DNA of 53,126 nt from Chloroflexota bacterium (GTDB taxonomy: Bacteria; Chloroflexota; Dehalococcoidia; UBA2979), in assembly GCA_027593235.1 (NCBI GenBank), contig JAQCIU010000022.1, positions 1-53,126 on the forward strand. Reading direction: 5' to 3'. Shown in pieces: positions 8,076-49,775 of the stretch (positions are counted from its first letter, which is position 1; the number at the start of each line of letters is the position of its first letter). The notes under the pieces were generated by a model. It did not search any database, was not told where the DNA came from, and saw only the letters and a list, made by a program, of their open reading frames with translations. A program made the position numbers and the translations under genes.

Positions 8076-10361
8076 TTATCCGCCCGCGCTTGCCTCGCCC
8101 AGCGCCCCGGCCTGTCGCAGCTCGTCGATCGCCGCGTCCGACAGCCCGACCAGCTCGCGCAGCACCTCGACGTTGTCGCTTCCGAGGCGTGGCGCGCGCT
8201 CGAGGAGCCGCGTGCCGCCCTCCCAGCGCCACGGGAGGCCGACCATCGCCCGTGCCTCGCCGTCCTCACCGAGGACCGACTCGTAGAACCCCCGTGCCCA
8301 GAGGTGCTCGTCCTCGAACAGCATCGTCGCGTCCAGCGACGCGGCAGCCGGCACGCCGGCCGCCTGCAGCTCCGCTGCGGCCGCGGGCGCGTCGCGCCCG
8401 CGCGTCCACTCCGCGATCGCGACATCGAGGTCGCTCGCCCGTCCGCGTCGCTCCGCCAGCGAGAGCGCCGAGGCGCCCTCGAGACCATCGGTCGCGCGGC
8501 AGAGTCGTTGCCACTGCTCGTCGGTGGTCACGGCAATCGCGACCCATTGGTCCTTCCCGGTCACCGGGTAGACATCGTGCGGGTAAAAGTCGCGCGAGCT
8601 GTTCCCGAGGCGGCGCGGCATCGTGCCGTCGCGTTGCGCCTCGAGCAGTGTTCCCGGCATCGCCCAGATCAGCGACTCCGACATCGCGAGGTCAATGTGA
8701 CGCCCTCGGCCGGTGCGTTCGCGCGCGGCCAGCGCGGCGGTCGCCGCGAAGGGGAGCAGCATCCCGAGTACGGGGTCGGACCAGGCGAAGCCGGTCACCG
8801 GCAGCCGCTCCTCGTAGCCATTCAGGTCAGCAAAGCCGGCGAAGCACTGCACGAGCGTCCCGTAGGCGACCGCGCCGGCGTCCGGCCCGGTCCGTCCGAG
8901 GCCCGAGGCCGACAGCAGGATCACGTCCTCCCGCAGCCCTCGAAGCACGTCGTAGCCAAGCCCGAGCCGTTCGAGGGCGCCCGTCGCGAAGTTCTCGACC
9001 ACGATGTCGCTCTGCGCCGCAAGCTTGCGCACCGCCTCGAGGCCGCCCGGCGCCTTGAGGTCGATCGCCACGTCGCGTTTGCCGCGACCGAGCACCGCGT
9101 GCAGCTCGCTGCGGTGGCCCGGGTCGGGGCGGCCCGGGGCCTCGACCTTGACCACGTCGGCGCCGAGGGCGGCCAGATACCGCGTCGTGGTCGGTCCGGC
9201 GATCACCCACGACAGGTCGAGCACGCGGATGCCGCTGAGCGGCAGCGGGCCACGCGCCGCTCGAGGTGTGCGCGGCTCACGAGGCGTGAACGCCGCCTCG
9301 GAGGGCGGGGAGGCCCGGTAGTCGCTCTCAGCGAGCCCGAACAGCCCTCGGGGTACTCGGGCGCTCTCGGCTCCGTCGAGGGCGCGTAGGAAGTCCCTGG
9401 CGGCGATCTGCGGCTCGTTGAGGATGTCGAGCGGGCCGTTCACGGCGAAGCAAGGGACGTGGACAGCCTGCGCCGCGGCGGCAAGCTCGGCCTTCGTCCA
9501 CTCCCGGGTCCAACTCGACATAAACGGAATCAACTCATCGGCGTGTTGCAGTCGGTTGGCGTGCGTCGCGAAATGAGGGGCGGAAGCCCAATCTGGCGAG
9601 CCCATGAGGGCGATCCACTGGACCCACTGGTGTTCTTCACGCGGGGAAGCGGCGACATAACCATCGCTCGTGGGCAGGATGTACGACGCACCGAGGACAT
9701 CCGCGCGCTTCTCGCGGGAGAGCGACAGCATCCCGTAGCCGGGCATCGAGTGCTCCCGCGCCGGCAGGATCGCCATCGCCTCCTGTGCCGAAATATCGAG
9801 GTCGACGCCCGCTCCCGAGGCCTCGCGTGCGTAGAGCGCCTGCATCGCCGCGCAGGCGGCAGCGATTCCCGCGATGAACTCCGACTGCTCGCCGGCGGCA
9901 CGCACGGGCGGTTCGACCTCGGCGTTCTCGACCGGGCCGAGGAGCAGGCGCGCGACGCCGCTGGACTGGAAGCTAACGAGGTCGCCGCCGAGCCAGTCGC
10001 GGTGCGGCCCGGTCAGCCCAAACGGCGTGATCGCCACGATCACCGCCGTCGGCGCGTGCACACGGAGCTGCTCCGGCAGCCACCCGCGGTCCTCGAGGTC
10101 GCGCGGCTGTCCGGCGACGATCACGAGGTCGGCTTCGCCGACGAGGGTCTCGAGATCTGCGAGGCTTACTTCGCGCTTGAGCGCGTCGGTCACCTCGCGA
10201 GCGAGTTGGGCCTCGCGACTGGCGGGTGGCCGCTCGGCCTCCGGGAGCCGGAGCTGCAGCACCTCGGCGCCCAGCTCGGCGAACATCCGGCCGCAGACGG
10301 ACGCGGCGAGTGGCTCGCCGATTTCGAGGACGCGCAGGCCATCCAGCAGCGGTGTGCTCAT
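8076..10361 (-). CDS. Fused two-domain family III CoA-transferase
   Basis: Two CaiB repeats (LDGLRVLEIG...; PLSGIRVLDLSWVIAGP...). N-terminal copy has QSEFIAG, C-terminal copy has WSDPVLG with the Asp. Confidence 0.9.
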   Translation of the reverse strand: MSTPLLDGLRVLEIGEPLAASVCGRMFAELGAEVLQLRLPEAERPPASREAQLAREVTDALKREVSLADLETLVGEADLVIVAGQPRDLEDRGWLPEQLRVHAPTAVIVAITPFGLTGPHRDWLGGDLVSFQSSGVARLLLGPVENAEVEPPVRAAGEQSEFIAGIAAACAAMQALYAREASGAGVDLDISAQEAMAILPAREHSMPGYGMLSLSREKRADVLGASYILPTSDGYVAASPREEHQWVQWIALMGSPDWASAPHFATHANRLQHADELIPFMSSWTREWTKAELAAAAQAVHVPCFAVNGPLDILNEPQIAARDFLRALDGAESARVPRGLFGLAESDYRASPPSEAAFTPREPRTPRAARGPLPLSGIRVLDLSWVIAGPTTTRYLAALGADVVKVEAPGRPDPGHRSELHAVLGRGKRDVAIDLKAPGGLEAVRKLAAQSDIVVENFATGALERLGLGYDVLRGLREDVILLSASGLGRTGPDAGAVAYGTLVQCFAGFADLNGYEERLPVTGFAWSDPVLGMLLPFAATAALAARERTGRGRHIDLAMSESLIWAMPGTLLEAQRDGTMPRRLGNSSRDFYPHDVYPVTGKDQWVAIAVTTDEQWQRLCRATDGLEGASALSLAERRGRASDLDVAIAEWTRGRDAPAAAAELQAAGVPAAASLDATMLFEDEHLWARGFYESVLGEDGEARAMVGLPWRWEGGTRLLERAPRLGSDNVEVLRELVGLSDAAIDELRQAGALGEASAGG

Positions 10362-11263: not shown

Positions 11264-12097
11264 CTAGACCGTCTCGATCGTGTCCTTGGCGGCAGCCGCT
11301 TTCGAGGTCGTTCCGGACACCCGTGCGGCGACGGCGCGGAGCTCCGCCATCTGCTCCTGCATCGCGATCTGCATCAGCCGCGCATCGCTGCTGTGCATCA
11401 CGAAGCGCGCGCCCAGCTCGATCGCCGTCGTCGAGGTGTCCAGCGTCTGCTGGTGAATCATCACCGGCACGTTGTGCGCCTCGGACTGCTTGATCACGCC
11501 CTTGATCACGTCGAGGTAGCGCGGGTTCGTGACCTCATCCGGGATGCCGAGTGAAGTGGTCATGTCGTTCGGCCCGATGAAGATGCCGTCGATGCCGCCC
11601 ACGTTGAGAATCGACTCCAGCCGCTCGTAGGCCGGCTCGCTCTCGATGCCGACGATGATGATGCTCTCCGCGTGCCGCGCTTCGAGGTATGCCTTCGTCT
11701 TGTCGCTCGGGAGCACGCCTTCGTGGACCGCACGCTTGAGGTATTCGCCCTTGAGCGGGTGCCACTTCGCCGTGGCGACGCACTCCTGCACCTCCTCGAC
11801 GGTCTCGCAGTAGGGGACGAGGACGCCGGCCGCGCCGGCATCGAGGGCCATCGCGACCCACTCCGCCTTCGGGACGGGGACGCGGACGATCGGTACGACC
11901 TCGGCGTCGCGGAGCATCCGACACAGCTCCTGGATCTCCTTGCGGTCGCGCGAGCCGTGCTCGCTGTCGATCACCACGAAGTCCATGGTCGAACCGGCGA
12001 GCGCGGACCGGAACCGCGTCGTCCCCATCGCGGAGAGCATGCAGCCGAACACCATGCCTCCATCCGAGAGCCGCTGCTTCAGCGCCACGCCGTCCAT
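11264..12097 (-). CDS. HpcH/HpaI family metal-dependent pyruvate aldolase
   Basis: FVVIDSEHG, PIVRVP, ALDAGAAGVLVP, GIES, IFIGPND. Start at ATG after GGAGAT (alternative 12109). Confidence 0.88.
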   Translation of the reverse strand: MDGVALKQRLSDGGMVFGCMLSAMGTTRFRSALAGSTMDFVVIDSEHGSRDRKEIQELCRMLRDAEVVPIVRVPVPKAEWVAMALDAGAAGVLVPYCETVEEVQECVATAKWHPLKGEYLKRAVHEGVLPSDKTKAYLEARHAESIIIVGIESEPAYERLESILNVGGIDGIFIGPNDMTTSLGIPDEVTNPRYLDVIKGVIKQSEAHNVPVMIHQQTLDTSTTAIELGARFVMHSSDARLMQIAMQEQMAELRAVAARVSGTTSKAAAAKDTIETV

Positions 12098-12219
12098 CTG
12101 ATCTCCCATCGCATGCCTCGAGGTCGTCGTTCGTCTGGTCAACATACCGATATCCGGAGCGCCTCGCGGCCTGCCTATACTCGCGGCGACCGAGGCGTCC
12201 GAACGAACGAGGTATCCCG

Positions 12220-13077
12220 ATGACCGAGCCCTACGCCCCCGCGGCGGCGATGAACTACGAGACGATCCAGGTCGAACGCGACGGTCGTGTCGGCATCGTC
12301 CGCTGGAACCGTCCGGATCGTCTCAACGCGTTCAACCAGACGATGTATGCCGAATGGATCGAGGCGTACGACGCCTTCAACTCCGACCCGGGCATCGGCG
12401 CCGTGGTCGCCACCGGGAACGGTCGCGCCTACAGCTCGGGCGCCGACATCGGTGGCTTCGAGCGCAGCTTCAGCGGCGGCGAAGCGCCAGTCGAGAAGGA
12501 GCCGCCGCACGCGCCGTTTGCGCCCTGGTACATGGCCGAAGGGAAGCCGACGATCGCCGCCGTCAACGGTGTTGCGGTCGGTATCGGCTTCACCTCGATC
12601 CTCTGGATGGACAACATCATCGCCTCGACGGAGGGCCGCTTTTCCGCACGCTTCGCGGCGATCGGCTTGACGCCGGAGCTATCGAGTTCATGGCTGCTGC
12701 CGCGCCTGATCGGCCTCCAGCGCGCGAAGGAGATGATGCTCACCGGCCGCATCTGGAGCGCCGAGGAGACACGCGACCTCGGGCTCATCCGCGAGGTCGT
12801 CGAGCCAGAGGATCTGCTGCCGACCGCGATCGCCCAGGCGGCAGCGATCGCGAACAACCCGGACACGTCACTGCGCGTCATCAAGCGAATGATGATGGAA
12901 GACCTGCTGTCCACAGACCTCACCACGATCGAGCGTCGATCCAGCGAGAATTTCGGGACCGGCCGCAAGAGCCCGGAGCACCGCGAGGCGCTGCTCGCCC
13001 TGAAGGAGAAGCGCCCCCCGCGTTACCAGGACGTCGAGTACATGGCGGAGATCGCGGCCGACCTCGCGACGAACTAG
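12220..13077 (+). CDS. Crotonase family protein (isomerase-like, single acidic residue in LTPE)
   Basis: AYSSGADI, KPTIAAVNGVAVGIG, IGLTPELSSSWLLPRLIG. Confidence 0.88.
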   Translation: MTEPYAPAAAMNYETIQVERDGRVGIVRWNRPDRLNAFNQTMYAEWIEAYDAFNSDPGIGAVVATGNGRAYSSGADIGGFERSFSGGEAPVEKEPPHAPFAPWYMAEGKPTIAAVNGVAVGIGFTSILWMDNIIASTEGRFSARFAAIGLTPELSSSWLLPRLIGLQRAKEMMLTGRIWSAEETRDLGLIREVVEPEDLLPTAIAQAAAIANNPDTSLRVIKRMMMEDLLSTDLTTIERRSSENFGTGRKSPEHREALLALKEKRPPRYQDVEYMAEIAADLATN

Positions 13078-13112: not shown

Positions 13113-13934
13113 TTACGTCCCGGTGAACTCCGGATCGCGACGCTCGATGAAGCTGCTGAAGCCCTCGCCGGCGTCGTTCGTCTTGAGCAGTTGGGCCTGC
13201 GCCATCCACTCGCGATCGAGGAACATGCCACGCTCGATGTTGTCGACCGACTCGAGGATCAACCGTCGGACGCCGGTGTAGCCCATCGGTGGCCCCGCCG
13301 CGATCTTTGCGGCGTAGGCCATCACTTCGTCCATGAGCTGATCGTCCGGAACGACCCGGTTCGCGAGCCCGAGTTCGAGGGCGCGCGCGGAGTCGATCAC
13401 GTTGCCGTCGTAGAATAGCTCGAATGCCTTCGATACTCCGACGATCCGAGGCAACCAGTACGCGGCGCCGTAGTCCGCGGCGACGCCGCGCTTGATGAAA
13501 ATCGATCCGATGCGGGCTGACTCGGCAAAGATGCGCACGTCGCAGCAAAGGGCGATGCCGAAGCCGCCGCCGGCGGCGACGCCGTTGATCGCGCCGATGA
13601 TCGGCACGTCCGAGTTGGCGAATGCCAGTGCCGCCTCGGCTGAGCCGGCGCGCCCGTTCATCCGGTCGTACCGCGATCGTGCCGGACCCGTGCCCGTGGC
13701 GCCTGCGCTGCCGACACCCGCGGGCGCGCGTTCCGCGGAGACCTCGGCGCCGGCGCAGAAGGCGCGACCGTTGCCGGTCAGCACCATCACCCGCACGTCG
13801 TCGTCCTCGGAGGCGCGTTTGATCGCGCCAATCAGGCCCGAGGTCAGCTCGGCGCTCAGCGAGTTCATCTTCTCGGGACGGTTCAGCGTGGCGACGAGGA
13901 TCCCGTCGTTCACCTCGACTTCGATGTCTGCCAT
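13113..13934 (-). CDS. Crotonase family protein (PaaG-like, Asp in VAAD)
   Basis: AFCAGA, PIIGAINGVAAGGG, FIKRGVAADYGAAYWLPRIVG. Confidence 0.88.
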   Translation of the reverse strand: MADIEVEVNDGILVATLNRPEKMNSLSAELTSGLIGAIKRASEDDDVRVMVLTGNGRAFCAGAEVSAERAPAGVGSAGATGTGPARSRYDRMNGRAGSAEAALAFANSDVPIIGAINGVAAGGGFGIALCCDVRIFAESARIGSIFIKRGVAADYGAAYWLPRIVGVSKAFELFYDGNVIDSARALELGLANRVVPDDQLMDEVMAYAAKIAAGPPMGYTGVRRLILESVDNIERGMFLDREWMAQAQLLKTNDAGEGFSSFIERRDPEFTGT

Positions 13935-14020: not shown

Positions 14021-15025
14021 CTACAGGCGCAGCTCGCTGGAGTGACCGGGGAAGAGCTTGGACTCGGGGTTGATGTGCTTCACGGCGGCGTTTGCGGCGA
14101 TCGCCGCCTCGCCGAAGCCGGTTACGATCAGGCTCAACGGCTCGGAGCCCTCGACCGATGAGATGTCGCCGGCGGCGAACACGCCCGGCAGGTTGGTCTC
14201 CATGTAGCCGTTCACGCGGATGTGCCGCGGGTCGGCGAGTTCGAGGCCCCAGTCAAGCATCGGCCCGAGTGAGGCCTTGAACCCTAGGCTCATCAGCACG
14301 ATATCCACGTCAAGGACGCGCTCCTCGTTGGTCTGGTTCTGCACGATCCGGGCCCGCTGAACGGTCCCGTTGCCGCTGACTTCCGCCAGCTCCCAGTGGG
14401 TCAGCATCGGGATCTCGGTCGTGCCCAGCTCGGCAAGGCTGGCCTCGTGAGCGCGGAACTCGTTGCGGCGGTGAATCAGCGTGATCTCATCCGCCCAACT
14501 GTGGAGATTGAGACACCAGTCGACCGCCGTGTCGCCGCCCCCGACGATCAGTACGCGCTTGTGCCGGAACGGCCGCCGGTCCTGTACGAAGTAAAAGACG
14601 CCGTTGCCCTCGAACTCCGCCAGCCCCGGCTTGTCGAGCTTGTTCGGCGCAAACGCGCCGATGCCCGCCGAGATCAGCAGCGCACGCGTCCGGTGCTCGC
14701 CGTTGGCGGTTCCGAGGACCCAGACCGGCTCGTCCCCGGATTCGTCGCGCGTCAGCGTGTCGACCGCCTCGTTGTAGACGTACGTCGGACCGAAACGCTC
14801 GTTCTGCTCCATCAGCAACTTCACGAGGTCGCGCGCCATCACGTGCGGGTGCCCGGGGACGTCGTAGATCATCTTCTCCGGGTAGAGCACCGCAAGCTGG
14901 CCGCCCGGCTCGGGCAGCGCCTCGATCACCTTCGTCTTCAGGCTCCGCAGTCCGGCATAGAACGCACCGAATAGCCCGGTCGGCCCGGCCCCGATGATGG
15001 TGAAGTCGTAGATCTCGCTCGGCAT
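14021..15025 (-). CDS. Thioredoxin-reductase-like ferredoxin--NADP(+) reductase (YumC type)
   Basis: IIGAGPTG, GGQLAVLYPEKMIYDVPG, GGGDTAVDW, C-terminal FPGHSS; no CxxC. Confidence 0.9.
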   Translation of the reverse strand: MPSEIYDFTIIGAGPTGLFGAFYAGLRSLKTKVIEALPEPGGQLAVLYPEKMIYDVPGHPHVMARDLVKLLMEQNERFGPTYVYNEAVDTLTRDESGDEPVWVLGTANGEHRTRALLISAGIGAFAPNKLDKPGLAEFEGNGVFYFVQDRRPFRHKRVLIVGGGDTAVDWCLNLHSWADEITLIHRRNEFRAHEASLAELGTTEIPMLTHWELAEVSGNGTVQRARIVQNQTNEERVLDVDIVLMSLGFKASLGPMLDWGLELADPRHIRVNGYMETNLPGVFAAGDISSVEGSEPLSLIVTGFGEAAIAANAAVKHINPESKLFPGHSSELRL

Positions 15026-15120
15026 TGCAACGCTCCTCGGTCCCGCCGGTCGAGCGTCGCACACGAGGCGCGTCCAGACATCTCGGCTCGGTGAATCGTC
15101 GGCGAGCGTTGCGCTCCCCG

Positions 15121-16266
15121 TCAGCGACTCGCGAGGAACTCCAGCAGCAGCCGTGCCACCTCGTCCGCCTGTTCCTGCTGTACCCAGTGCCCGGCGCCTT
15201 CGAGGAGGTGCACGCCTCGGAAGTCGCTGCAGGCAGCCGACTGCATCCGTTCGAGGTTGCCCGGGCGCTGGCGGACGCCCCAGTCACTGGCGCCGCTGAC
15301 GAACATCGAGGGCACCTCGATCGTTCGGCCGGAGAACAGCAGGAGCTCCGCACCCGTGACGGCACCGGCGCGGTACCACTGGAGGCCACCCTGGAAGCCC
15401 GTGCGACCGTACTCGCCGCTGTAGACGTGCAACTCGTCCTCGGTCAGCCACGCGCACGCCTCGATCGCCTCGCGTGAGGGCATCTCGGCTGCGACCGTCT
15501 CAGCCATGCCCATGTCGAGGTCCATGACGTAGTAGGTCGGCAGTTGCGACACCGCCTCGGCAGTCCACGCTCCGAGGGCGAACGGCCGGTTGTCCGGCCA
15601 GTCGGCGCTCTTCGCGTGGTAGTAGGCGCGCAGGAAGTCGTGCACGCCCTGCGGCGCGCGCCACATGTTCTCGTTCGCCTCGCGCGTCGAGTAGTAGCGC
15701 TGGTAGTGACGCCGCGGCCGCGGCAGCTTCGCCAGCGCCTCGTGGATGTCGAGGTCCGCCGGTTGGCCCGAGGCGTCTCGATCGGCGGTGTCGAACGGGA
15801 ACGCCGGCGGCCCGCCGAACGGCGCGCTCATCAGCGCCACGCTCCGGAACACGTCCGGACGCGTCAGCGCGCACCACGCCGCCACCGGCGACCCGAAGTC
15901 GTGCCCAACCACCGCCGCCACCTCGCGCCGTCCGAGGGCCGACACCAACCCGAGCGCGTCGCGTACGAGGTTGAGCATCCCGTACGCGCGCAGGTCGCCG
16001 TCGTAGTCGCCGTCCCAGCCCGTCGTCCGGCCATAGCCACGCTGGTCCGGCGCGACGACGTGGTAGCCGGCCGCGGCGAGCGGCGGCAGCAGCTTGCGCC
16101 AGCTGTAGGCCAGCTCGGGGAAGCCGTGCAGCAGCAGGACAAGCGGGCGGTCGGATTCCTCGAAACCAGCTTCGAGGATGTGCATCGTCAGGCCGTTGCC
16201 GTTCGGCACCGTCCGCGACCGGATACCCGGTGGAAGCGTCCCCGCGCCGTACTCGACCGTGCTCAC
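15121..16266 (-). CDS. Alpha/beta-fold epoxide hydrolase
   Basis: HGFPELAYSWR, APDQRGYG, nucleophile GHDFG, GHWVQQE. Confidence 0.88.
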   Translation of the reverse strand: MSTVEYGAGTLPPGIRSRTVPNGNGLTMHILEAGFEESDRPLVLLLHGFPELAYSWRKLLPPLAAAGYHVVAPDQRGYGRTTGWDGDYDGDLRAYGMLNLVRDALGLVSALGRREVAAVVGHDFGSPVAAWCALTRPDVFRSVALMSAPFGGPPAFPFDTADRDASGQPADLDIHEALAKLPRPRRHYQRYYSTREANENMWRAPQGVHDFLRAYYHAKSADWPDNRPFALGAWTAEAVSQLPTYYVMDLDMGMAETVAAEMPSREAIEACAWLTEDELHVYSGEYGRTGFQGGLQWYRAGAVTGAELLLFSGRTIEVPSMFVSGASDWGVRQRPGNLERMQSAACSDFRGVHLLEGAGHWVQQEQADEVARLLLEFLASR

Positions 16267-16268
16267 CG

Positions 16269-17951
16269 TTAGACGACCAGCCGTTCCTGGTACTCGCCGA
16301 ACGCCTCACGCATCACGCCGCAGATCTCGCCGAGCGTGCAGTAGGCGCGGACGGCCTCGATCAGTGCGGGCATCGTGTTTGTCTTGCCGTCGGCACAAAC
16401 CGCGCTGAGGCGCGTCAGCGCCTCGCTCGCTGCCTGCGAGTCGCGCTCGGCGCGGACGCGGTGCAGCCGATCGAGGTGCACCCGTTCGCCCGCCGGATCC
16501 ATCCGCAGGATCGGGATCTCGATCGGTTCGTCGATCTGGAACTCGTTCACACCCACGATGATTCGCTCACCGGTGTCGACCTCGCGCTGGAACGTGTAGG
16601 CCGCCTCGGCGATCTCGCGCTGCTGGAATCCACCCTCGAGCGCTGGGATCACGCCGCCGATGTCGTCGATCCGCTTGAAGTAGGAGTACGCGTCGCGCTC
16701 CATCTCGTTCGTCAGCGCCTCGACGAAGTAGGAGCCGCCCAGCGGGTCGACCGTGTTCACGACGCCGGTCTCGTGCATCAGCACCTGCTGGGTGCGCACC
16801 GCGAGCCGCGCCGCCTTGTCGCTGGGCAACGCCAGCGCCTCGTCCATCGCGTTGGTGTGCAGCGACTGCGTGCCACCGAGGATGCCCGACAGCGCCTGGA
16901 TCGCCACGCGCATCAGGTTCACCTCGGGCTGGACTCCGGGCAGCGATACGCCGGCGGTCTGCGTGTGGAAGCGCATCCACCACGAGCGTGGGTTCTTCGC
17001 GCCGAAGGTCTCCTTCATCTCGCGCGCCCAGATCCGGCGTGCGGCGCGGAATTTGGCGATCTCCTCGAAGAAGTCGGAGTGCGCGTTGAAGAAGAACGAC
17101 AGGCGCGGCGCGAAGTCGTCGACATCGAGGCCGCGGTCGATCGCCCAGCGCACGTACTCGAAGCCGTGCGCCAACGTGAACGCCAGCTCCTGCGCCGCCG
17201 TCGCTCCGGCTTCGCGCATGTGGTATCCGCTGACGCTAATCGAGTTCCAGCGCGGCATCTCCTGCGTCGCGAACTCGATCGTGTCGGTCACGAGGCGCAT
17301 CGACTCCTCGGGCGGGAAGAGGAACTCGTTCTGTGCCGCGTACTCCTTCAGGATGTCGTTCTGCAGCGTCCCACCGAGGCGTGCGCGCTCCACGCCCTGC
17401 TTCTCGGCGGTGACGATGTACATCGCCCAGATCACCGAGGCCGGCCCGTTGATCGTCATCGAGGTCGTGACCTCATCGAGCGGAATGTCCGCGAGCAGCA
17501 GCTCCATGTCGGCGAGCGAGGAGATCGCCACGCCGCACTTGCCGAACTCGCCGGCCGCCCATGGGTCATCGTGGTCGTAGCCCATCAGCGTGGGCATATC
17601 GAAGGCGATGCTCAGCCCGGTCTCACCGTGGGCGAGCAGGTCGCGGAAGCGCGCGTTGGTCTCTTCGGCGGTGCCGAAACCGGAGAAGATGCGGATCGTC
17701 CACGGCTTCCCGCGGTACCCGGTCGGGTGGACGCCGCGCGTGAACGGATACTCGCCGGGGTTGCCGAGGTCGCGCTCGTAGTCGAGCCCACCGTCGCCGA
17801 AGTCGGTTGGGCCGTAGAGCCGCTCGATCGGTTTCGAGGAGGTCGTGACGAAGGGCCCGGCGCTCTCTGTGCCGTCCGAGGCGACCCGTTCCTCCCAGGC
17901 CGCGCGTTGCGCGCGCAGGGAGTCGATTCCGTCGTTCGTCTCGTCAGCCAC
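16269..17951 (-). CDS. AdoCbl-dependent acyl-CoA mutase, substrate-binding large subunit (isobutyryl-CoA-mutase-like residues)
   Basis: [50 protein letters not shown]; no DxHxxG B12-binding domain. GTG start after GGAGG. Confidence 0.9.
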
Positions 17952-18032
17952 CACGTACCTCCGGGCCCTCGGCGGGCCCAGCTTACGCGCTGTAATGGCC
18001 TGAGGGTGCACGTTCCGGCACGGGGTGCGAGG

Positions 18033-19838
18033 TCAGGCGGCTAGTTCCTCCACGCGTTCCAGCCACCCGACGAGTTGATCGGACGACATCGGTCGCGCGA
18101 AGAAGAAGCCCTGCCCGAAGTCGCAGCCAATCTCCGTCAGGTAGTCGGCCTGTTGGGTCGTCTCCACCCCCTCCGCCACGATCTCCAGGCCGAGCCGGTG
18201 GGCCAGCATCACGATGCCCTCGACGATCGCCCGGCTCCCAGCGTCGCCGGGCAGCGGCTTCACGAAGCTCCGATCGATCTTCAGTACATCGGCTGGCAGC
18301 GAGGCGATGTGCGACAGCGCCGAGTGACCGGTTCCGAAGTCGTCGATCGCTGTTTCGATGCCCGCTGCGCGGAGGACATGCAGGTCGTCGACGATCTCTC
18401 TCGCGGCGTCACCCAGCGCGGATTCGGTCAGTTCGACCAGCAGACGCGCCGGCTGCAATCCGCTCCGCTCGATCTGTTCGAGGATCGACTGCGCCAGGTT
18501 CCGCCCCCGGAACTCGAGCGGCGAGATATTGACGGCCACTCGCATTGGCGGGCGCCCGAGGGCGTCCCAGGACTGTAGGTCGGTGAGCGACTGTTGCCGT
18601 ACGAAGGCGCCAACGGCAGAGATCAGGCCGGTTTCCTCGGCGATCGGAATCCAGTCCGCCGGGGAGAACGCGCCGTGGACCGGGTGGTGCCAGCGCACGA
18701 GGGCTTCGACGTGCCGCACTGACCAGTCGCTCAGTCGCACGATCGGCTGGTAATGCACCTCCAGGCCGTCGGCGGCGATGGCGGCGCGCAGCTCACGTTC
18801 GATCATGTCGCGTCGCGAGAGATACTCGGTCATCTCCGCGGAATGGACCCGCACACTGCTGCCGCCCTCGCGCTTCGCCATGTACATCGCGATGTCGGCG
18901 GCACGGATCAACTGCTCGGGCTCGCGCGCGTCGGCCGGATAGAGGGCGGCGCCGATACTCACCGTCAGGTTCACGACCCCGCCGGGAAGCGTGATCGGCA
19001 CGCTCAGCGCCTCGAGGATCCGGTCGAGTTCGGCCGTCAGTGACGCCCTCGACATTTCTCCGCACAGCAGCACGACGAACTCGTCGCCCGCCAGCCGCGC
19101 CACCACATCGTCCGGGCGGGCGGTGCCGACGAGGCGGCGCCCGACCTCCCGCAGCAACTCGTCACCGGCGTCATGGCCCTGCGTGTCGTTGATGAGCTTG
19201 AATCGATCGAGGTCGATGAACGCGACAGCCAGCTCCGCCCCCGCGGGGACGGCACCACCGATCGACCGATCGAGGTCGTCCAGAAACTGGGTGCGGTTGG
19301 CGAGCCCGGTCAATGCGTCGCGCGTGGCCGCCAGGCGGAACTGCTCCCGGCTGGCTCTTAGCTCGTGAATCAACTCGTCACGACGCCGCTCTGCCGCCAC
19401 CAGATCGGAAATATCGCGGATCATGCCGACGTACCAGGTCTTCCCTTCGGCCGTGAACTCCGAGACCGACAGGTGGAGCGGAAACTCACTGCCGTCCGAC
19501 CGACGCGCGACATCCTGCCGTCCCCGCCCGATGACCTGCGGGGCGCCACCGGCGCCGTAGCGCAGCAGATAGTCGTCGTGCTGTTCGCCCGTCGCCTCGT
19601 GCATCAGCACGGACACGTTGCGCCCCACCAGTTCGCCACGTTTGTATCCGAACATGCGCTCGCAGGACGCGTTGACCCGCTCGATGATTCCCCGGTCATC
19701 GGCGATCACGATCGCGTCGACGGCAGCCTCGAAGAGGGCAGCGAAACTGCCCTCGTGGACGAGGTGACTCATCGCGAGTTGGAGCGCGTCTCGGTGCTCA
19801 TGTTCGAGGATCGGCATAAGCATCCGGGCGGCGCTCAC
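18033..19838 (-). CDS. PAS-GGDEF-EAL c-di-GMP signalling protein with FixL-like heme PAS
   Basis: HDDYLLRY...RRSDGSEFPLHLSVSE (FixL-like), DLDRFKLINDTQGH, RLAGDEF, VEALVRW, IDDFGTGHS. Confidence 0.9.
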   Translation of the reverse strand: MSAARMLMPILEHEHRDALQLAMSHLVHEGSFAALFEAAVDAIVIADDRGIIERVNASCERMFGYKRGELVGRNVSVLMHEATGEQHDDYLLRYGAGGAPQVIGRGRQDVARRSDGSEFPLHLSVSEFTAEGKTWYVGMIRDISDLVAAERRRDELIHELRASREQFRLAATRDALTGLANRTQFLDDLDRSIGGAVPAGAELAVAFIDLDRFKLINDTQGHDAGDELLREVGRRLVGTARPDDVVARLAGDEFVVLLCGEMSRASLTAELDRILEALSVPITLPGGVVNLTVSIGAALYPADAREPEQLIRAADIAMYMAKREGGSSVRVHSAEMTEYLSRRDMIERELRAAIAADGLEVHYQPIVRLSDWSVRHVEALVRWHHPVHGAFSPADWIPIAEETGLISAVGAFVRQQSLTDLQSWDALGRPPMRVAVNISPLEFRGRNLAQSILEQIERSGLQPARLLVELTESALGDAAREIVDDLHVLRAAGIETAIDDFGTGHSALSHIASLPADVLKIDRSFVKPLPGDAGSRAIVEGIVMLAHRLGLEIVAEGVETTQQADYLTEIGCDFGQGFFFARPMSSDQLVGWLERVEELAA

Positions 19839-19916
19839 GCTTACGACACCGCCCCCTGACGAGTGCTGACGCTCCAGGGCCGGGTCGTTGCGGGTGGTAC
19901 CGCGATCGCGCGTCGC

Positions 19917-21020
19917 TTAGCTCGCCGCGATCCGTTCACGCATGAGCGGCAGCACGTCGCGTGCCACGTGCTCGCACTCCTCGACATGTGGGAAGCCGGA
20001 CAGGATGAACTCGTCGATCCCCAGTTCCCAGTAGCGGAACAGCTCGTCCGCCACCTGCCGAGGCGTGCCGACGATCGCTGTTCCGAGGTTCACCCGCACC
20101 AGCGAAATGCCGTTCCACAGCCGATCGGTAACGCGGTGCTCCTTGAAGTCGCGCGCCTGCGCCGCCGCGCCAACCATCGAGGTGCCCTCGACCGCCCAGT
20201 GCCGCTGCGCGATCACCGTCTCCGAGGCGTCCGCGATCAGCGCATCGGCCAGCCGCCACGCTTCGTCCTCGTCGTCCGCCACCACCAGGTGCGTGCGCAG
20301 CCCGAACCGCAGCTCGCGTCCCACCTCGGAGGCGGCGACGCGCGCACGTTCCATCAGCGCGCGCGTGTCCTCCAGCGGCTGGATCCACATCAGCAGCGTG
20401 TCGCCCTGCGACGCCGCCAGTGCGAGCGCGCTCGGCGACGCACCACCGAGGTACCAGCTCGGCCCCGGCGCGCTCGGACCCGGCGACACGATCGCGTTGC
20501 GCAGCGTCGTAGTCCCGCCCTCGAAGTCCACCCGCTCACCGGGCCGCGCCCAGAGCGTGCGGCAGGCGGTCATGAACTCCTCGGCCTGCTCGTAGCGGCG
20601 GTCGTGGCTACTGGTCACGCCCAGGCGCTCCATGTCGCCCTGGATGCCGCCGGGCACGATGTTGATGTCGAGTCGCCCGTGGGACATCCGGTCGAACGTC
20701 GCCGCCATCTGCGCGAACAACCCGGCTGGGATGAAGCCCGGCCGCACCGCGACCAGGAAGCGAATCCGCTCGGTCACGGCCGCCAGCGCCGTCGCCGTCG
20801 TCCACGTCTCCGCCAGCGGCGCCGCCTCGTCGAACAGCCCGTTGCTGAAGCGCGTCGGGATCAGCAGCGAATGGAAGCCCTCGCGCTCCGCCGTCTCGAC
20901 CACCTGCCGCAGGTACTCGAACGTCGGTTCGCGGTCGGCGCGCACCGTCCCGATCCGCGCACCGTCCCCATCGATCGGGATGAACCAGTCGAACTGCGGC
21001 TCCCGCCGGTCAGAAGTCAC
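19917..21020 (-). CDS. Luciferase-like (LLM) flavin monooxygenase, SsuD-like
   Basis: FDWFIP, RFLVAVRPG, GRLDINIV, EFILSGFPHVEE; GTG start overlaps the fbaA stop. Confidence 0.85.
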   Translation of the reverse strand: MTSDRREPQFDWFIPIDGDGARIGTVRADREPTFEYLRQVVETAEREGFHSLLIPTRFSNGLFDEAAPLAETWTTATALAAVTERIRFLVAVRPGFIPAGLFAQMAATFDRMSHGRLDINIVPGGIQGDMERLGVTSSHDRRYEQAEEFMTACRTLWARPGERVDFEGGTTTLRNAIVSPGPSAPGPSWYLGGASPSALALAASQGDTLLMWIQPLEDTRALMERARVAASEVGRELRFGLRTHLVVADDEDEAWRLADALIADASETVIAQRHWAVEGTSMVGAAAQARDFKEHRVTDRLWNGISLVRVNLGTAIVGTPRQVADELFRYWELGIDEFILSGFPHVEECEHVARDVLPLMRERIAAS

Positions 21021-22084
21021 GAGCGCGCCAGCGACTTGCCCCGCGATCCCAGGATGTCGAAGCTCTCCTGCAACCGCGCCACCATCCCCAGCTCCCCCTC
21101 ACGCAGCCACTTCCGAGGGTCATACAGGTTCTTGTACGGCTGATCGGTATCCGGATCGATCTGGTACTGGAAAGCTCGCGGGCTCTGCAGCACGTACTTC
21201 CCGATCGCTTCGGCGAACGCGAACTGCGTGTCCGTGTCGATGTTCATTTTGAAGACGCCGTGACTGAGCGCCTCGCGGATGTCACCGTCCTCGGACCCCG
21301 AACCGCCGTGGAAGACCAGATCGACCGGGTTGGTGCCACCGACTTTCGAGGCGACCAGTGCCTGTGCGTCGCCCAGGATGTGCGGCCGCAGGTGGACGTT
21401 GCCCGGCTTGTAGACGCCGTGCACGTTCCCAAACGCGGCGGCGATCGCGACATGACCGATCGGCGTCAGCAGCTCGTACGCGTCCAGCACGTCCTGCGGC
21501 TGCGAGTACAACCGCGGGTTGTCCGCCGTGTCTTCATCGCTGCCGACACCGTCTTCTTCGCCGCCGGTGATGCCCAGCTCAATCTCCAGGCTCACGTCGA
21601 TCGCCGCCATGCGCCTCAGGAGCCGCGCCGACTCCTGCAGGTTGAACTCCACCGTCTCCTCGGAGAGGTCGAGCATGTGCGACGTGAACAGCGGGCGTCC
21701 GGTGGCGGCGTGGTGCGCCTCGGACTCGGTCAGCACGCCCTCCACCCACGGGACGAGCCCGCGGTTCGCGTGGTCTGTGTGCATCACCACGCAGACCCCG
21801 TAGTGCTTCGCCAGCAAGTCCGCGTGCTGCGCGGCCGATACCGCGCCCATCACCCGCGCGAGATTCTTGTCGGGCAGCCCCTGACCGGCGAAGAACTGGG
21901 CGCCGCCGTTGGAGAGCTGGACGATCACGTCCGACCCCACCTGTGCGGCGGCCTCCATCACCGCGTTGATCGAATCGGTCCCCACGATGTTGACCGCGGG
22001 GATCGCGTAGCCGCCTTGCTTCGCCGCGCTGACCAGCGTGCGGTAGTCCTGACTGGTCACGACACCGGGCTTCAACGTAGACAT
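21017..22084 (-). CDS. fbaA: Class II fructose-bisphosphate aldolase (type A)
   Basis: HTDH, FTSHMLDLS, EIELGITGGEEDG, AFGNVHGVYKPGNV, VFHGGSGS, KMNIDTD, YDPRKWLR. Confidence 0.93.
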   Translation of the reverse strand: MSTLKPGVVTSQDYRTLVSAAKQGGYAIPAVNIVGTDSINAVMEAAAQVGSDVIVQLSNGGAQFFAGQGLPDKNLARVMGAVSAAQHADLLAKHYGVCVVMHTDHANRGLVPWVEGVLTESEAHHAATGRPLFTSHMLDLSEETVEFNLQESARLLRRMAAIDVSLEIELGITGGEEDGVGSDEDTADNPRLYSQPQDVLDAYELLTPIGHVAIAAAFGNVHGVYKPGNVHLRPHILGDAQALVASKVGGTNPVDLVFHGGSGSEDGDIREALSHGVFKMNIDTDTQFAFAEAIGKYVLQSPRAFQYQIDPDTDQPYKNLYDPRKWLREGELGMVARLQESFDILGSRGKSLARS

Positions 22085-26179: not shown

Positions 26180-26295
26180 CACGACGCGATGCTCGGGGAA
26201 GCCGGTGCGAAACCGGCGCTGTCCCGCAACTGTGATCGCCCCCCGCCGCCCCGCGCGGCTCCCGAGGGCGTCAGCCAGAGCACCGGCCCGCGTCC
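26180..26295 (+). ncRNA. Cobalamin riboswitch
   Basis: GGGAAGCCGGTGCGAAACCGGCGCTGTCCCGCAACTGTGA core and AGCCAGAGCACCGGCC B12-box-like 3' end, directly upstream of cob genes. Confidence 0.92.
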
Positions 26296-26383
26296 CCACC
26301 GAACCCGCGAGGACGGGCGGCGGCGTTCGCGACCTCGCGCACCCCGTCCCCCCGTACCTCGACCCGCGATCGGAGCCGCCGAG

Positions 26384-27307
26384 GTGCTCGTCCGCCCCCG
26401 CTCCGCGCTCGCTCTCGCTACTGGCGTCGCCCTCGATGTCGCGCTGATCGACCCGCCGAATGCCGTGCACCCGGTCGCGCTGATCGGACGCGCCGCCCGC
26501 GCGGTTGAGCGCTGCGCACCCACCTCACCGCACGCACGCCGCCGCTTCGGCCTCGCCGCGGCGCTCGCGCTGCCACTCGTTGCCTTCGAGGTGACCCGTC
26601 GCCTCGAACGGAGCACCCGCGGCGGCTGGCTCGTCGCCGCGCTCCTCCTTTCGCTCGCCTCGTCACAGCGCACGCTCGTCACGCGCGTCGCCGAGGTGCG
26701 CGATGCCCTCGCACGCGGCGACCTCGAGACCGCTCGCGCGCTGCTCGCGCTCCACCTCGTGAGCCGCGACACCACCACGCTCGACGCCTCCGAGGTCGCC
26801 GCCGCCACGATCGAGTCGCTGGCCGAGAACCTGAGCGACGGCGTCGTCGCCCCGTGCCTCGCCTTCGCCCTCGGTGGCGCGCCCCTCGCGTGGGCGTACC
26901 GCACCTCGAACACGCTCGACGCGATGTGGGGCTACCGCACCGAGCGCTACGAGGACCTCGGCAAAGCGGCCGCCCGCATCGACGACGCGTGGAACCTCCT
27001 GCCCGCGCGCCTCACCGCGCTCGCGATCGTCCTCGCAACCCTCGGCGGGCAGACCACCGAGGTCTGGCGCGCCTGGCGCCGCGACGCGTCGAGCACAGTC
27101 AGCCCGAACGCCGGCCACCCGATGGCGGCGATGGCCGGTGCGACCGGCGTACGCCTCAGCAAGCGCGGCGCCTACGACCTCAACGCGAGCGGTCGCCCCG
27201 CCTCGGCGGCGGACATCACGAGGGCGCTCCGCATCGCTCGTCGTGCGACCGCGCTCGTTGCCGGCGCGTTGTTGCTCGGCATGACCGCACGAGGTCGCCT
27301 CGTATGA
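26384..27307 (+). CDS. cbiB: Adenosylcobinamide-phosphate synthase
   Basis: DPP..HPV, ESLAENLSDGVVAP, YRTSNTLDAMWGY, SPNAGHP; GTG start is inferred. Confidence 0.9.
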   Translation: MLVRPRSALALATGVALDVALIDPPNAVHPVALIGRAARAVERCAPTSPHARRRFGLAAALALPLVAFEVTRRLERSTRGGWLVAALLLSLASSQRTLVTRVAEVRDALARGDLETARALLALHLVSRDTTTLDASEVAAATIESLAENLSDGVVAPCLAFALGGAPLAWAYRTSNTLDAMWGYRTERYEDLGKAAARIDDAWNLLPARLTALAIVLATLGGQTTEVWRAWRRDASSTVSPNAGHPMAAMAGATGVRLSKRGAYDLNASGRPASAADITRALRIARRATALVAGALLLGMTARGRLV

Positions 27308-49504: not shown

Positions 49505-49775
49505 AGCACATCCCCTCTGAACGATGCCTCCCGCGAGCTTCAACCTGGAGCGGGGGTCAACCGCTCAAGTCTATCGATGCCACCTCGTGACCGTCGCTAC
49601 AGACCGCCCACTACGCCGTCGAACTCCCGGCCCAGCGCGCGCTCCGCGCCTGGACGCGGCGCCCCGACACCGTCGCTCCCCTCCTCGACGCCTCCGAGGG
49701 CCTTCGCACCCCCTCGGCCATTACTGGCGGGCGCGCCTACAATGCTGCCAATCCGCATCTCGAGGAGGTCCCGCA

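Follow-up and report, generated by a model that had tools for sequence, protein, structure and literature searches.

Translation of the minus strand over 16269..18011 gave a single open frame within the window, by which the whole stretch of DNA analysed (53,126 nucleotides) is meant. The start of the mutase gene was placed at a GTG (17951) lying 6 nt downstream of GGAGG, and the gene ends with TAA (16269-16271). From this start the protein is 560 aa long, the length of its closest database relatives. A second in-frame GTG at 18011 would add 20 codons; this extension is probably not translated, the database relatives being 560 aa. The protein matched Pfam PF01642 (MM_CoA_mutase) with 720.7 bits (cut-off 22.1), the match running from profile position 2 to 512 (of 512), and TIGR00641 with 733.4 bits (cut-off 303.8). 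At ∼50% identity to solved structures, the mutase fold is not in doubt. Family-profile searches of the 560-aa protein found no fused B12-binding domain. An ORF on the plus strand (16230..18044) was rejected as an antisense shadow in 68% G+C DNA. The gene and its surroundings are as follows:

16269..17951, minus strand: large (substrate-binding) subunit of an acyl-CoA mutase, 560 aa; Phe/Gln class, isobutyryl-CoA-mutase-like
17952..18011, minus strand: 20 codons that the in-frame GTG at 18011 could add at the N terminus, giving 580 aa
15121..16266, minus strand: epoxide-hydrolase-family alpha/beta hydrolase, 381 aa, beginning 2 nt after the mutase stop
14021..15064, minus strand: flavoprotein resembling thioredoxin reductase (score under the TrxR equivalog cut-off), in the conserved cluster
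13113..13934, minus strand: gene of the enoyl-CoA hydratase/isomerase family, in the conserved cluster
12220..13077, plus strand: another gene of the enoyl-CoA hydratase/isomerase family, also in the conserved cluster
11264..12145, minus strand: aldolase or CoA-ester lyase of the HpcH/HpaI family, in the conserved cluster
8076..10361, minus strand: CoA-transferase of family III, 761 aa, matched in two stretches
19917..21020, minus strand: luciferase-like monooxygenase, near the mutase in the window and in L128, G303 and G301

An ORF at 19863..21143 (plus strand) was without a family match and was set aside; the real gene there is the luciferase-like monooxygenase on the minus strand. Acyl-CoA genes surround the mutase in the window as well as in relatives; cobD/cobQ are found at a distance of 8-12 kb. 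Family-profile searches of the neighbourhood found neither a small subunit or MeaB nor an AMP-ligase adjoining the mutase. The tight link to the epoxide-hydrolase-family gene is not accounted for by an isobutyrate/butyrate role of the enzyme.

Residue equivalences were taken from phmmer alignments to solved structures, namely methylmalonyl-CoA mutase (MCM) of P. shermanii (1req), human MCM (2xij) and HcmA (4r3u). The motifs below were located in the mutase; WTIRIFSGF, the motif at residues 197-210 and GVSLPGVQP, on which the original prediction was built, were all present at correct coordinates.

17676..17702, minus strand: WTIRIFSGF, residues 84-92; Phe89 (17685-17687) at the Tyr89 site of MCM, Ile88 and Ser90 as lineage variants
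17589..17612, minus strand: SIAFDMPT, residues 114-121; Ala116 at the Asp site of HcmA
17322..17363, minus strand: 14-residue motif, residues 197-210; Gln207 (17331-17333) at the Arg207 site of MCM
17217..17231, minus strand: SGYHM, residues 241-245; Tyr243 and His244 as in MCM
16926..16952, minus strand: GVSLPGVQP, residues 334-342; P338-G339-V340 in place of T-A-Q

Tyr89 and Arg207 of MCM bind the substrate carboxylate. In the alignments to both the P. shermanii and the human enzyme, Phe89 of the mutase stood opposite the Tyr of RQYAGF and Gln207 opposite the Arg of MVRNTY; the Tyr89/Arg207 pair is thus absent, and the mutase is not an MCM. The pair present in its place, with Phe for Tyr89 and Gln for Arg207, is reportedly that of the isobutyryl-CoA mutase (ICM) class. 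HcmA-type enzymes reportedly carry Ile where MCM has Tyr89, and Asp at the 117 site; this pair is absent as well. Phe and Ala stand there, and in the alignment to HcmA (4r3u) Ala116 falls opposite the Asp in STDFDMPT. The catalytic-core residues of MCM are Gln197, Tyr243, His244, His328 and Gln330. QNDILKE, SGYHM and HTQT of the mutase agree with the corresponding motifs of 1req, 2xij and 4r3u, with Gln197 kept, and the catalytic core is intact.

Trees were calculated with two programs. FastTree (87 rows) placed all Phe/Gln rows in one clade (SH-like 99). IQ-TREE under LG+C20 (57 rows) placed the mutase in a four-row clade (100) within a 23-row, all-Chloroflexota Phe/Gln clade (98), and split the Tyr/Arg rows from the Phe/Gln plus HCM-like clade at SH-aLRT 98. 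With the 44 Phe/Gln rows held together, the IQ-TREE result lay 3.9 lnL units above the free search (p-AU 0.605). The backbone among the Phe/Gln subclades and the HCM-like clade had supports of 84-90 in the mixture-model tree, so that the Chloroflexota clade is not placed as sister to characterised IcmA. The ICM reference in these trees consisted of Streptomyces-type loci. A grouping of the mutase with the Phe/Gln, ICM-like class and away from the Tyr/Arg enzymes was recovered, and a specific sister position to the Streptomyces clade was not.

With a probability of roughly 0.6, we take the gene to encode the catalytic subunit of a two-component, AdoCbl-dependent acyl-CoA mutase of the ICM class, which shares the small subunit and MeaB encoded on contig C21 and whose odd residues are variants. 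Membership of the ICM class follows from the sequence, the key residues and the tree. The protein would form the TIM-barrel, CoA-ester-binding catalytic subunit of a two-component adenosylcobalamin-dependent mutase. We infer that it acts on isobutyryl-CoA and n-butyryl-CoA, which it would interconvert; isovaleryl/pivalyl-CoA could be accepted in a side activity, as in IcmF, and what is formed would be passed on to the acyl-CoA enzymes encoded nearby (hydratases, dehydrogenase, CoA-transferases).

The partner proposed for the mutase is the sole stand-alone small subunit of its genome, which would be used together with the MeaB of the MCM operon. This operon, on contig C21, has the order Tyr/Arg large subunit, epimerase, small subunit, MeaB; a fused Tyr/Arg mutase is encoded on contig C27. 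Only one stand-alone small subunit (carrying GLDGHDRG, which fits the DxHxxG motif of B12-binding subunits) and one MeaB were found in the genome, both in the C21 operon. The other frames with a B12 domain comprise one of 1181 aa (MetH-sized), the fused mutase, one of 553 aa and a CarH-like MerR protein. An ORF with a B12 domain on contig C9 was considered as a mutase subunit and rejected, as it is a MerR/CarH-like regulator.

It is possible, if unlikely, that the enzyme is a canonical ICM with its own IcmB-like small subunit, which is encoded elsewhere and missing from the assemblies, so that nothing is shared. The icmA and icmB genes of S. cinnamonensis are reportedly unlinked, and the actinobacterial IcmA-type loci agree with such an arrangement: of the 16 that extend for 2 kb or more on either side, none holds a small subunit. 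In the closed Chloroflexota genomes G263 and G231 MCM is fused, and the one orphan large subunit, of the Phe/Gln type, has its counterpart in a single stand-alone small subunit encoded at an unlinked site. The assembly under study (G000) is 89.66% complete, so that a second small subunit could be missing from it. All three assemblies of the genus (G301, G303 and the present one, with completeness values of 89 to 90%), however, have one stand-alone small subunit each, always in the MCM operon. Split large subunits outnumber small subunits in seven further genomes that are 91-100% complete (G309, G322, G319, G228, G105, G103 and G085), and 10 of the 16 genomes inventoried have two or three catalytic subunits to one B12-binding subunit. 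The same-family genome G309 carries the genes for the MCM large subunit, epimerase, small subunit, MeaB and the Phe/Gln large subunit in one string; the Phe/Gln gene is placed after meaB in the MCM operon there, and in an acyl-CoA cluster in the present genus.

The pairing was also modelled. A complex of the 560-aa mutase with the C21 small subunit scored 0.78. Of 157 solved complexes 116 attain this mark, as do 2 of 215 mismatched pairs. The best of three controls scored 0.00; the runs shared at least 97% of contacts, with a partner pLDDT of at least 84. As like complexes have already been solved (HcmAB, 4r3u; MCM), the model may show likeness only. Over the 40 predicted interface positions the mutase and the MCM large subunit of the same genome had an identity of 0.42, compared with 0.51 over the whole sequences. 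The comparison does not point to co-adaptation of the two to a common partner, and the lack of special conservation at the interface between the two large subunits speaks for a dedicated small subunit. We know of no biochemical demonstration that one small subunit and MeaB serve mutases of different specificity.

The original prediction had taken Ile88, Ser90 and P-G-V as the mark of a new specificity for a possibly bulkier substrate. Conservation was assessed in 178 Phe/Gln-class sequences less than 70% identical to the mutase. The usual form of the third motif, TAQQ, proved to be real, with Thr in at least 92%, Ala in 92% and Gln in 99% of these sequences at the P-G-V positions. The mutase departs from residues that are at least 90% conserved in this set at only 10 of ∼560 positions. 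These include Met245, which adjoins the catalytic His244 and is Ile in 99% of the distant Phe/Gln enzymes, and the P338-G339-V340 loop. Lineages differ in the residue before the Phe: most Chloroflexota relatives have Met, the Streptomyces type and IcmF have Gln, and Leu, Glu or Asn occur in others. Ile, also seen in the separate L145 lineage, has at least two origins. As Gln before the Phe/Tyr/Ile site is common to MCM, HcmA, IcmF and the Streptomyces type, its loss in the Chloroflexota clade is a real difference. Among 98 relatives at 70-84% identity, Ser90 was found in 32 and TDV in the third motif in 60; PDV was found in 11 of the 15 nearest relatives. PGV was derived stepwise, from TAQQ by way of TDVQ and PDVQ to PGVQ. 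In the cofactor-free complex model, residues 335, 338 and 339 contact the same small-subunit loop as residues 207-209 and 247-249, which would bring the PGV change near the active-site rim, where it may affect the substrate. On the reading preferred here, P338-G339-V340 would lie on the face towards the cofactor and small subunit and would not act as a specificity switch.

That a lineage marked by Ile88, Ser90 and P338-x-V340 left the MCM operon and isomerises a bulkier branched or hydroxylated acyl-CoA, for example in epoxide/diol catabolism, is doubtful. The ten departures, with Met245 beside His244 and the P338-G339-V340 loop among them, argue for it, as does the position of this loop on the active-site/cofactor face in the complex model; the corresponding loop of HcmA, TKPQ, likewise differs from TAQQ. 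The neighbourhood points in the same direction. Only 2 nt separate the mutase stop from the start of the epoxide-hydrolase-family gene, the product of which carries HGFP, GHDFG and GHW, presumably epoxide-hydrolase motifs, and has exclusively epoxide hydrolases as its best PDB matches. The order mutase then hydrolase was found in all four near-clade contexts (the window, L128, G303 and G301), each with a luciferase-like monooxygenase nearby; these contexts are, however, close kin (82-93% identity) and hence little more than one observation. Furthermore, Ala116 and the two residues that set the class, Phe and Gln, are unchanged, the Asp with which HcmA binds the hydroxyl group is missing, and every odd residue has intermediates in sister lineages without the hydrolase link. 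The changes of Met to Ile, the latter also seen in L145, and of Ala to Ser are conservative. The branches of the lineage are short, that to the mutase being 0.048, without a burst of change, and with dN/dS values of 0.10-0.21 among the four near-clade genes the lineage is under purifying selection. Ile88, Ser90 and P338-G339-V340 look like lineage-specific variants, the product of ordinary drift rather than of new chemistry, and the claim that they signal a new specificity was not supported.

A more elaborate history is distinctly improbable. According to it, the mutase left the MCM operon and was coupled to the epoxide-hydrolase gene in a cluster of monooxygenase, hydrolase, hydratase, lyase and CoA-transferase genes. 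Ile88, Ser90, Met245 and P338-G339-V340 would have retuned it to another acyl-CoA, hydroxylated or bulkier and branched, from epoxide/diol breakdown, with the small subunit and MeaB of MCM still being borrowed.

We give hardly any credence to an inactive relic, that is, a partnerless orphan large subunit like the non-catalytic MutA chain of MCM. The missing small subunit and MeaB next to the gene would fit this, as would its patchy occurrence (matches above 60% identity in only 3 of 18 other same-family genomes), but all catalytic-core motifs are intact, dN/dS is 0.10-0.21, intact relatives number in the hundreds in databases and the complex model is confident.

An MCM after all, as suggested by the source names of the relatives ('methylmalonyl-CoA mutase ...') and by the NCBIfam MCM equivalog NF006944 as second-best family match, can practically be dismissed, as the 623 bits obtained lie below the 876-bit cut-off, the carboxylate-binding Arg and Tyr are both replaced, the canonical Tyr/Arg MCM with epimerase, small subunit and MeaB is encoded elsewhere in the genome, and the tree parts the two types at support 98. 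The mislabelling of such enzymes by automatic pipelines had been anticipated correctly. The split MCM of the same genome scored 625.7 bits with NF006944, also below the cut-off, so that automatic family models cannot separate the two paralogues; because of this blindness, the Phe/Gln test corrects an annotation blur that affects hundreds of genomes.

Relabelling alters the metabolic reading of uncultured Chloroflexota, in which a B12 enzyme for non-carboxylated short acyl-CoAs takes the place of a second MCM. The ICM-class mutase would tie isobutyrate/valine-type carbon to butyrate oxidation and would not duplicate propionate metabolism. If the sharing proposed above is true, one cofactor-loading module (small subunit and MeaB) serves mutases of differing specificity.

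In the literature on isobutyryl-CoA mutase and Chloroflexus-type bacteria, as far as its accessible text goes, no treatment of ICM in Chloroflexota was found; ICM is named only generically in one article (PMC2667541) and putative ICM genes are given for Syntrophomonas in another (PMC6687939). MCM (1req, 2xij and the split enzyme encoded on C21) has the fold, the PF01642 family and the cofactor machinery in common with the mutase. It differs in having Tyr/Arg instead of Phe/Gln and an operon with epimerase, small subunit and MeaB; identity to the MCM paralogue of the same genome is 51-53%.

HcmAB (4r3u) is the best-scoring solved structure (534 bits) and agrees with the mutase in its split architecture and in Gln at the Arg207 site. 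In HcmA, Ile takes the place of the Phe and Asp that of Ala116 (RQIAGF and STDFDMPT, in 4r3u and in the ELW1 locus); its third motif, TKPQ, is off TAQQ as well. The HCM-type operon on plasmid pELW1-1 of Mycobacterium sp. ELW1 has a CoA ligase, a small subunit and MeaB alongside (PMC7176365), none of which adjoins the mutase.

IcmF (4xc6; NF045497) has the Phe/Gln pair of the mutase as well (RQFAGE, QGQNT) and belongs to the same chemistry class; an IcmF above the NCBIfam equivalog cut-off (1812 versus 1500 bits) has this same pair. It is, however, a single chain of ∼1100 aa with B12 and G-protein domains (fused to the MeaB GTPase), as opposed to 560 aa, and 4xc6 shows 36% identity to the mutase (289 bits), with SLHAQE in place of SLPGVQ. 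With NF045497 the mutase reached 337.3 bits (cut-off 1500), over the C-terminal part only, and it does not belong to IcmF. Isovaleryl-CoA/pivalyl-CoA mutase (PCM) is reportedly another mutase for non-carboxylated branched acyl-CoA that is related to ICM and IcmF; a specificity of this type had been envisaged in the original prediction.

IcmA/IcmB of Streptomyces cinnamonensis is a two-subunit isobutyryl-CoA mutase (EC 5.4.99.13). Loci L048-L068 from Streptomyces, Actinoplanes and Catenulispora served as the IcmA reference, their kinship to the assayed S. cinnamonensis enzyme being taken from the genus name. Copies on Streptomyces plasmids (L011, L044/L046 and L045) were rejected for this purpose, as they are Tyr/Arg split MCM. 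Among the 20 rows of L048-L068 the readable motifs were RQFAGF (17) and RQFSGF (1), all of these rows being Phe/Gln. These loci resemble the mutase in having a stand-alone large subunit of ∼560 aa with Phe/Gln, Ala at the HcmA Asp site, the YH and HTQT motifs, a large-subunit gene that does not adjoin a small-subunit gene, and the same order of PDB matches (HcmA before MCM before IcmF). They differ from it in belonging to separate subclades at 51-55% identity; from the IcmA type to the mutase, RQF becomes RIF, QTDIFKEYIAQKEW becomes the 14-residue motif at residues 197-210, and LTAQQP becomes LPGVQP. Judged by sequence, the mutase belongs to the large, already recognised Phe/Gln group that includes the Streptomyces IcmA type, and its enzyme class is known and common.

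The mutase gene in the window is most likely bounded at 16269..17951 on the minus strand, as the original prediction had placed it. A single open frame runs across 16269..18011, and the GTG at 17951 was preferred as the start because GGAGG lies 6 nt ahead of it and its product would then be as long as the closest database proteins (560 aa). Residues were numbered from this GTG, by which the key residues are Phe89 and Gln207; the three sequence strings quoted in the prediction were all found and their window coordinates confirmed. The Pfam model MM_CoA_mutase was matched end to end (720.7 bits). A 604-aa plus-strand ORF was rejected as an antisense shadow in DNA of 68% G+C.

Searches of PDB sequences with phmmer gave 534 bits for 2-hydroxyisobutyryl-CoA mutase (HcmA, 4r3u), 481 for human methylmalonyl-CoA mutase (MCM), 465 for P. 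shermanii MCM and 289 for the isobutyryl-CoA mutase (ICM) IcmF. In the alignments, RIFSGF of the query falls on RQYAGF in MCM and RQIAGF in HcmA, AAQNEF on MVRNTY and MAQKEY, respectively, and SIAFDMPT on STDFDMPT of HcmA. The query therefore has Phe at the Tyr89 site and Gln at the Arg207 site, where Tyr and Arg bind the carboxylate in MCM, and Ala at the site where Asp of HcmA binds the hydroxyl group. The YH(M), QNDILKE and HTQT motifs are kept, so the catalytic core is intact. Judged by its sequence, the gene encodes the large subunit of an acyl-CoA mutase of the ICM class and Phe/Gln type, which would be functional by all such criteria.

For the phylogeny that had been proposed as a check, 87 rows were hand-picked from about 300 sequences to span the diversity, most fragmentary or frameshifted representatives being left out. 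FastTree placed every Phe/Gln row in one clade (support 99), with a group of HCM-like and odd signatures as its sister and the Tyr/Arg (MCM-type) rows outside. In a 57-row subset (LG+C20, quick search, SH-aLRT only), the query was nested in a four-row Ile-Phe clade (100), itself within successively larger clades of 16 rows (99) and 23 rows (98), the last entirely of Chloroflexota and of Phe/Gln type; Tyr/Arg rows were separated at 98, and the backbone between the Phe/Gln subclades and the HCM-like clade had supports of 84-90. Forcing the 44 Phe/Gln rows, a signature-defined group, into one clade improved the likelihood by 3.9 over the free search (p-AU 0.605). The end branch of the query is 0.048, and the four genes of its near clade have dN/dS of 0.10-0.21. 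Both the Phe/Gln pair in place of Tyr/Arg and the separate clade bear out the claim that the protein is not an MCM.

The source assembly (3.39 Mb, 78 contigs, 89.66% complete) holds three PF01642 genes, among which only that of the window is Phe/Gln. Contig C21 carries, in order, a large subunit, an epimerase-like glyoxalase, a 145-aa B12-binding subunit and MeaB; RQYAGF and ARGTY in the large subunit mark this set as a canonical split MCM operon. The third gene, on contig C27, encodes a fused Tyr/Arg mutase of 711 aa. Family models are unable to tell the query from true MCM, since the NCBIfam MCM equivalog scored 623 bits for the query and 625.7 bits for the C21 large subunit, both below the 876-bit cut-off; relatives are named 'methylmalonyl-CoA mutase ...' by their sources, as had been foreseen. 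The gene thus carries a generic wrong label, and its class is already known and very common. Database clusters with at least 69% identity to the query number more than 120, and the organism names attached to them are all Chloroflexi/Chloroflexota, Dehalococcoidia or 'bacterium HR25'; 229 of 301 sampled genomes of the phylum match it at E <= 1e-100, a tally in which Tyr/Arg paralogues are counted, as are five genomes with an 'unpublished' flag. When named genomes were scanned with an actinobacterial representative as seed, 80 loci were obtained, those of Streptomyces, Actinoplanes, Catenulispora and Nakamurella all reading WTIRQFAGF / SVAFDMPT / QTDIFKEYIAQKEW / LTAQQP. Phe/Gln genes also occur in Acidobacteriota, Gemmatimonadota, Bacteroidota, Ignavibacteria, Dormiibacterota, Planctomycetota and others. 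At family level the gene is accessory: of the 18 other same-family genomes, just 3 contain a match of more than 60% identity.

The remaining question was whether the odd residues (Ile88, Ser90 and the PGV loop) mark an unusual specificity. Within the top 12 first-motif variants of 155 sequences (query, 34 loci and 120 database hits), the residue before Phe is Met in about 120, Ile in 15, Gln in 9 and Leu in 1; the 15 Ile sequences are the nearest relatives only, the query counted. Elsewhere Glu (Scalindua), Asn (genome G319) and Leu occur, and Ile is found again in a separate lineage (L145). A conservation scan covered 291 Phe/Gln sequences of more than 500 aa (178 distant, 98 mid-distance, 15 nearest). 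At only ten positions does the query depart from residues conserved in at least 90% of the distant set: S90, E216, M245, H262, P338, G339, V340, S355, I357 and V385. Ser90 is shared by 32 of the 98 mid-distance relatives and V340 by 60; position 339 is Asp in 60/98 mid-distance and 11/15 nearest relatives and Gly in 4/15 nearest, and Pro338 is present in all 15 nearest. These counts point to stepwise change of the loop, TAQQ to TDVQ to PDVQ to PGVQ. In a cofactor-free complex model, residues 335, 338 and 339 contact the GLDGHDRG loop of the small subunit, as do 207-209, 247-249 and 372-374, which puts the PGV loop on the cofactor-facing rim of the barrel near the active site. A role in cofactor or partner contact would fit this model, and the loop may also influence the substrate. 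The original prediction is thus upheld on Phe/Gln, non-MCM identity and mislabelling, but not on the odd residues, which appear as lineage variants with intermediates visible in relatives; an unusual specificity signature is unlikely, and is kept in play mainly by the rim position of the loop and by a conserved coupling to an epoxide-hydrolase gene. The genes concerned are as follows.

8076-10361, minus strand: doubled family III CoA-transferase (761 aa, two stretches, an unusual form), 81% conserved in the same-genus assembly G303
15121-16266, minus strand: alpha/beta hydrolase of the epoxide-hydrolase family (381 aa), its GTG 2 nt past the mutase stop
18033-19838, minus strand: PAS-GGDEF-EAL signalling gene, between the mutase and a luciferase-like monooxygenase

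The best PDB hits of the hydrolase are all epoxide hydrolases (e.g. 6unw, 165 bits), and M. tuberculosis EphB matches it over the full length (148 bits); it has HGFP, GHDFG and GHW motifs. The mutase-hydrolase pair is followed downstream by a TrxR-like flavoprotein, a pair of enoyl-CoA hydratases, an HpcH-family lyase/aldolase and the doubled CoA-transferase; upstream are the PAS-GGDEF-EAL gene, the monooxygenase and an acyl-CoA dehydrogenase. The same arrangement, running lyase, hydratase, hydratase, (flavoprotein), hydrolase, mutase and having a monooxygenase close by, is repeated in L128 (a near-clade relative) and in the same-genus assemblies G303 and G301. The PAS-GGDEF-EAL gene has no match in the corresponding interval of these three and so looks like a local insertion into a conserved cluster. 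The mutase-hydrolase pairing is present in 4/4 near-clade contexts including the window, all close kin. Relatives of 70-73% identity neighbour a family III CoA-transferase, a thiolase-like gene, a hydratase or an acyl-CoA dehydrogenase.

A profile search of the neighbouring genes found no B12-binding or MeaB gene near the mutase. In loci with flanks of 2 kb or more on either side, a small subunit was flanking in 2/34 close metagenomic relatives, 0/16 actinobacterial IcmA-type loci and 22/37 loci of other phyla. The genome has one stand-alone small subunit (PF02310), that on C21. Another PF02310 match, on contig C9, was rejected as a mutase subunit, being MerR/CarH-like; this protein (L008, 1342-2361, minus strand), with MerR, B12-binding_2 and B12-binding domains, resembles a CarH-like light or B12 sensor, and beside it and the C21 subunit the genome has no small B12-domain frame. 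The same set recurs in G301 and G303, where a split MCM and its small subunit occur with an orphan Phe/Gln gene and a fused mutase. Split large subunits outnumber stand-alone small ones in 10 of 16 inventoried genomes; the ten are G000 (the source assembly), G301, G303, G309, G322, G319, G228, G105, G103 and G085. The other six are outside this count: G263 and G231 each have one orphan large subunit and a single small one that is unlinked to it, G043 and G258 have two large versus two or three small, G244 has six large versus four small, and G195 is fragmentary. In the same-family genome G309, MCM large subunit, (1 kb), epimerase, small subunit, MeaB and a Phe/Gln large subunit (RMF, AQNEY) follow one another, and thus two catalytic subunits of different class flank one cofactor module; the string lies at about 5920-12743 of L228 (G309:C2:12000-31999). 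Modelled in complex with the C21 small subunit, the window's protein scored 0.78 versus 0.00 for the best of three controls, a mark reached by 116/157 solved complexes and 2/215 mismatched pairs and to be read as likeness to a competent interface rather than proof of this pairing, because HcmAB and MCM complexes have been solved. Runs had at least 97% of contacts in common, with partner pLDDT of at least 84. Identity between the query and the genome's MCM large subunit is 0.42 at the predicted interface versus 0.51 overall, so the interface shows no particular conservation. That the MCM small subunit and MeaB are shared with the Phe/Gln mutase is the best, if unproven, inference.

Further genes of the window and genome are listed below.

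14-1930, plus strand: biotinyl carrier and carboxyltransferase in one chain, methylmalonyl-CoA decarboxylase alpha-like (at 253 bits well short of the cut-off)
26189-27307, plus strand: CobD/CbiB, cobalamin biosynthesis, part of a cob pair 8-12 kb from the mutase
28365-29864, plus strand: CobQ (cobyric acid synthase), the other member of the pair
42221-43930, plus strand: TPP enzyme, just passing the oxalyl-CoA decarboxylase equivalog (560.5 versus 557 bits)
43979-45220, plus strand: formyl-CoA-transferase-like family III CoA-transferase after the TPP enzyme (342 bits, below the 442 cut-off)
49524-50873 and 50940-52604, plus strand: mesaconyl-CoA-hydratase-family gene and 554-aa acyl-CoA dehydrogenase with N-terminal extension
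Contig C27, L010, 5406-7541, minus strand: the fused Tyr/Arg mutase, whose WIFRTYSGH motif is atypical

The TPP enzyme and CoA-transferase look like an oxalate or 2-hydroxyacyl-CoA cleavage pair; the mesaconyl-CoA-hydratase-family gene, the 554-aa dehydrogenase and the C27 mutase may together belong to an ethylmalonyl-CoA- or 3-hydroxypropionate-type route.

Five other full-length large subunits (P0132, P0135, P0137, P0148 and P0151) have pocket motifs outside the MCM, ICM and HCM signatures, such as RLVSGF / NVVVDMPA and RPITGF / HFVFDMPT, and group beside the HCM-like clade; they are better candidates for new specificity than the window's mutase gene. Compared with known systems, the window's protein differs from MCM (human, P. 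shermanii), which has Tyr and Arg where it has Phe and Gln, and from HcmA, which has Ile (RQIAGF) and Asp (STDFDMPT) where it has Phe and Ala, Gln being common to both; the Phe/Gln pair is that of an IcmF which passes NCBIfam's equivalog cut-off (RQFAGE and QGQNT).
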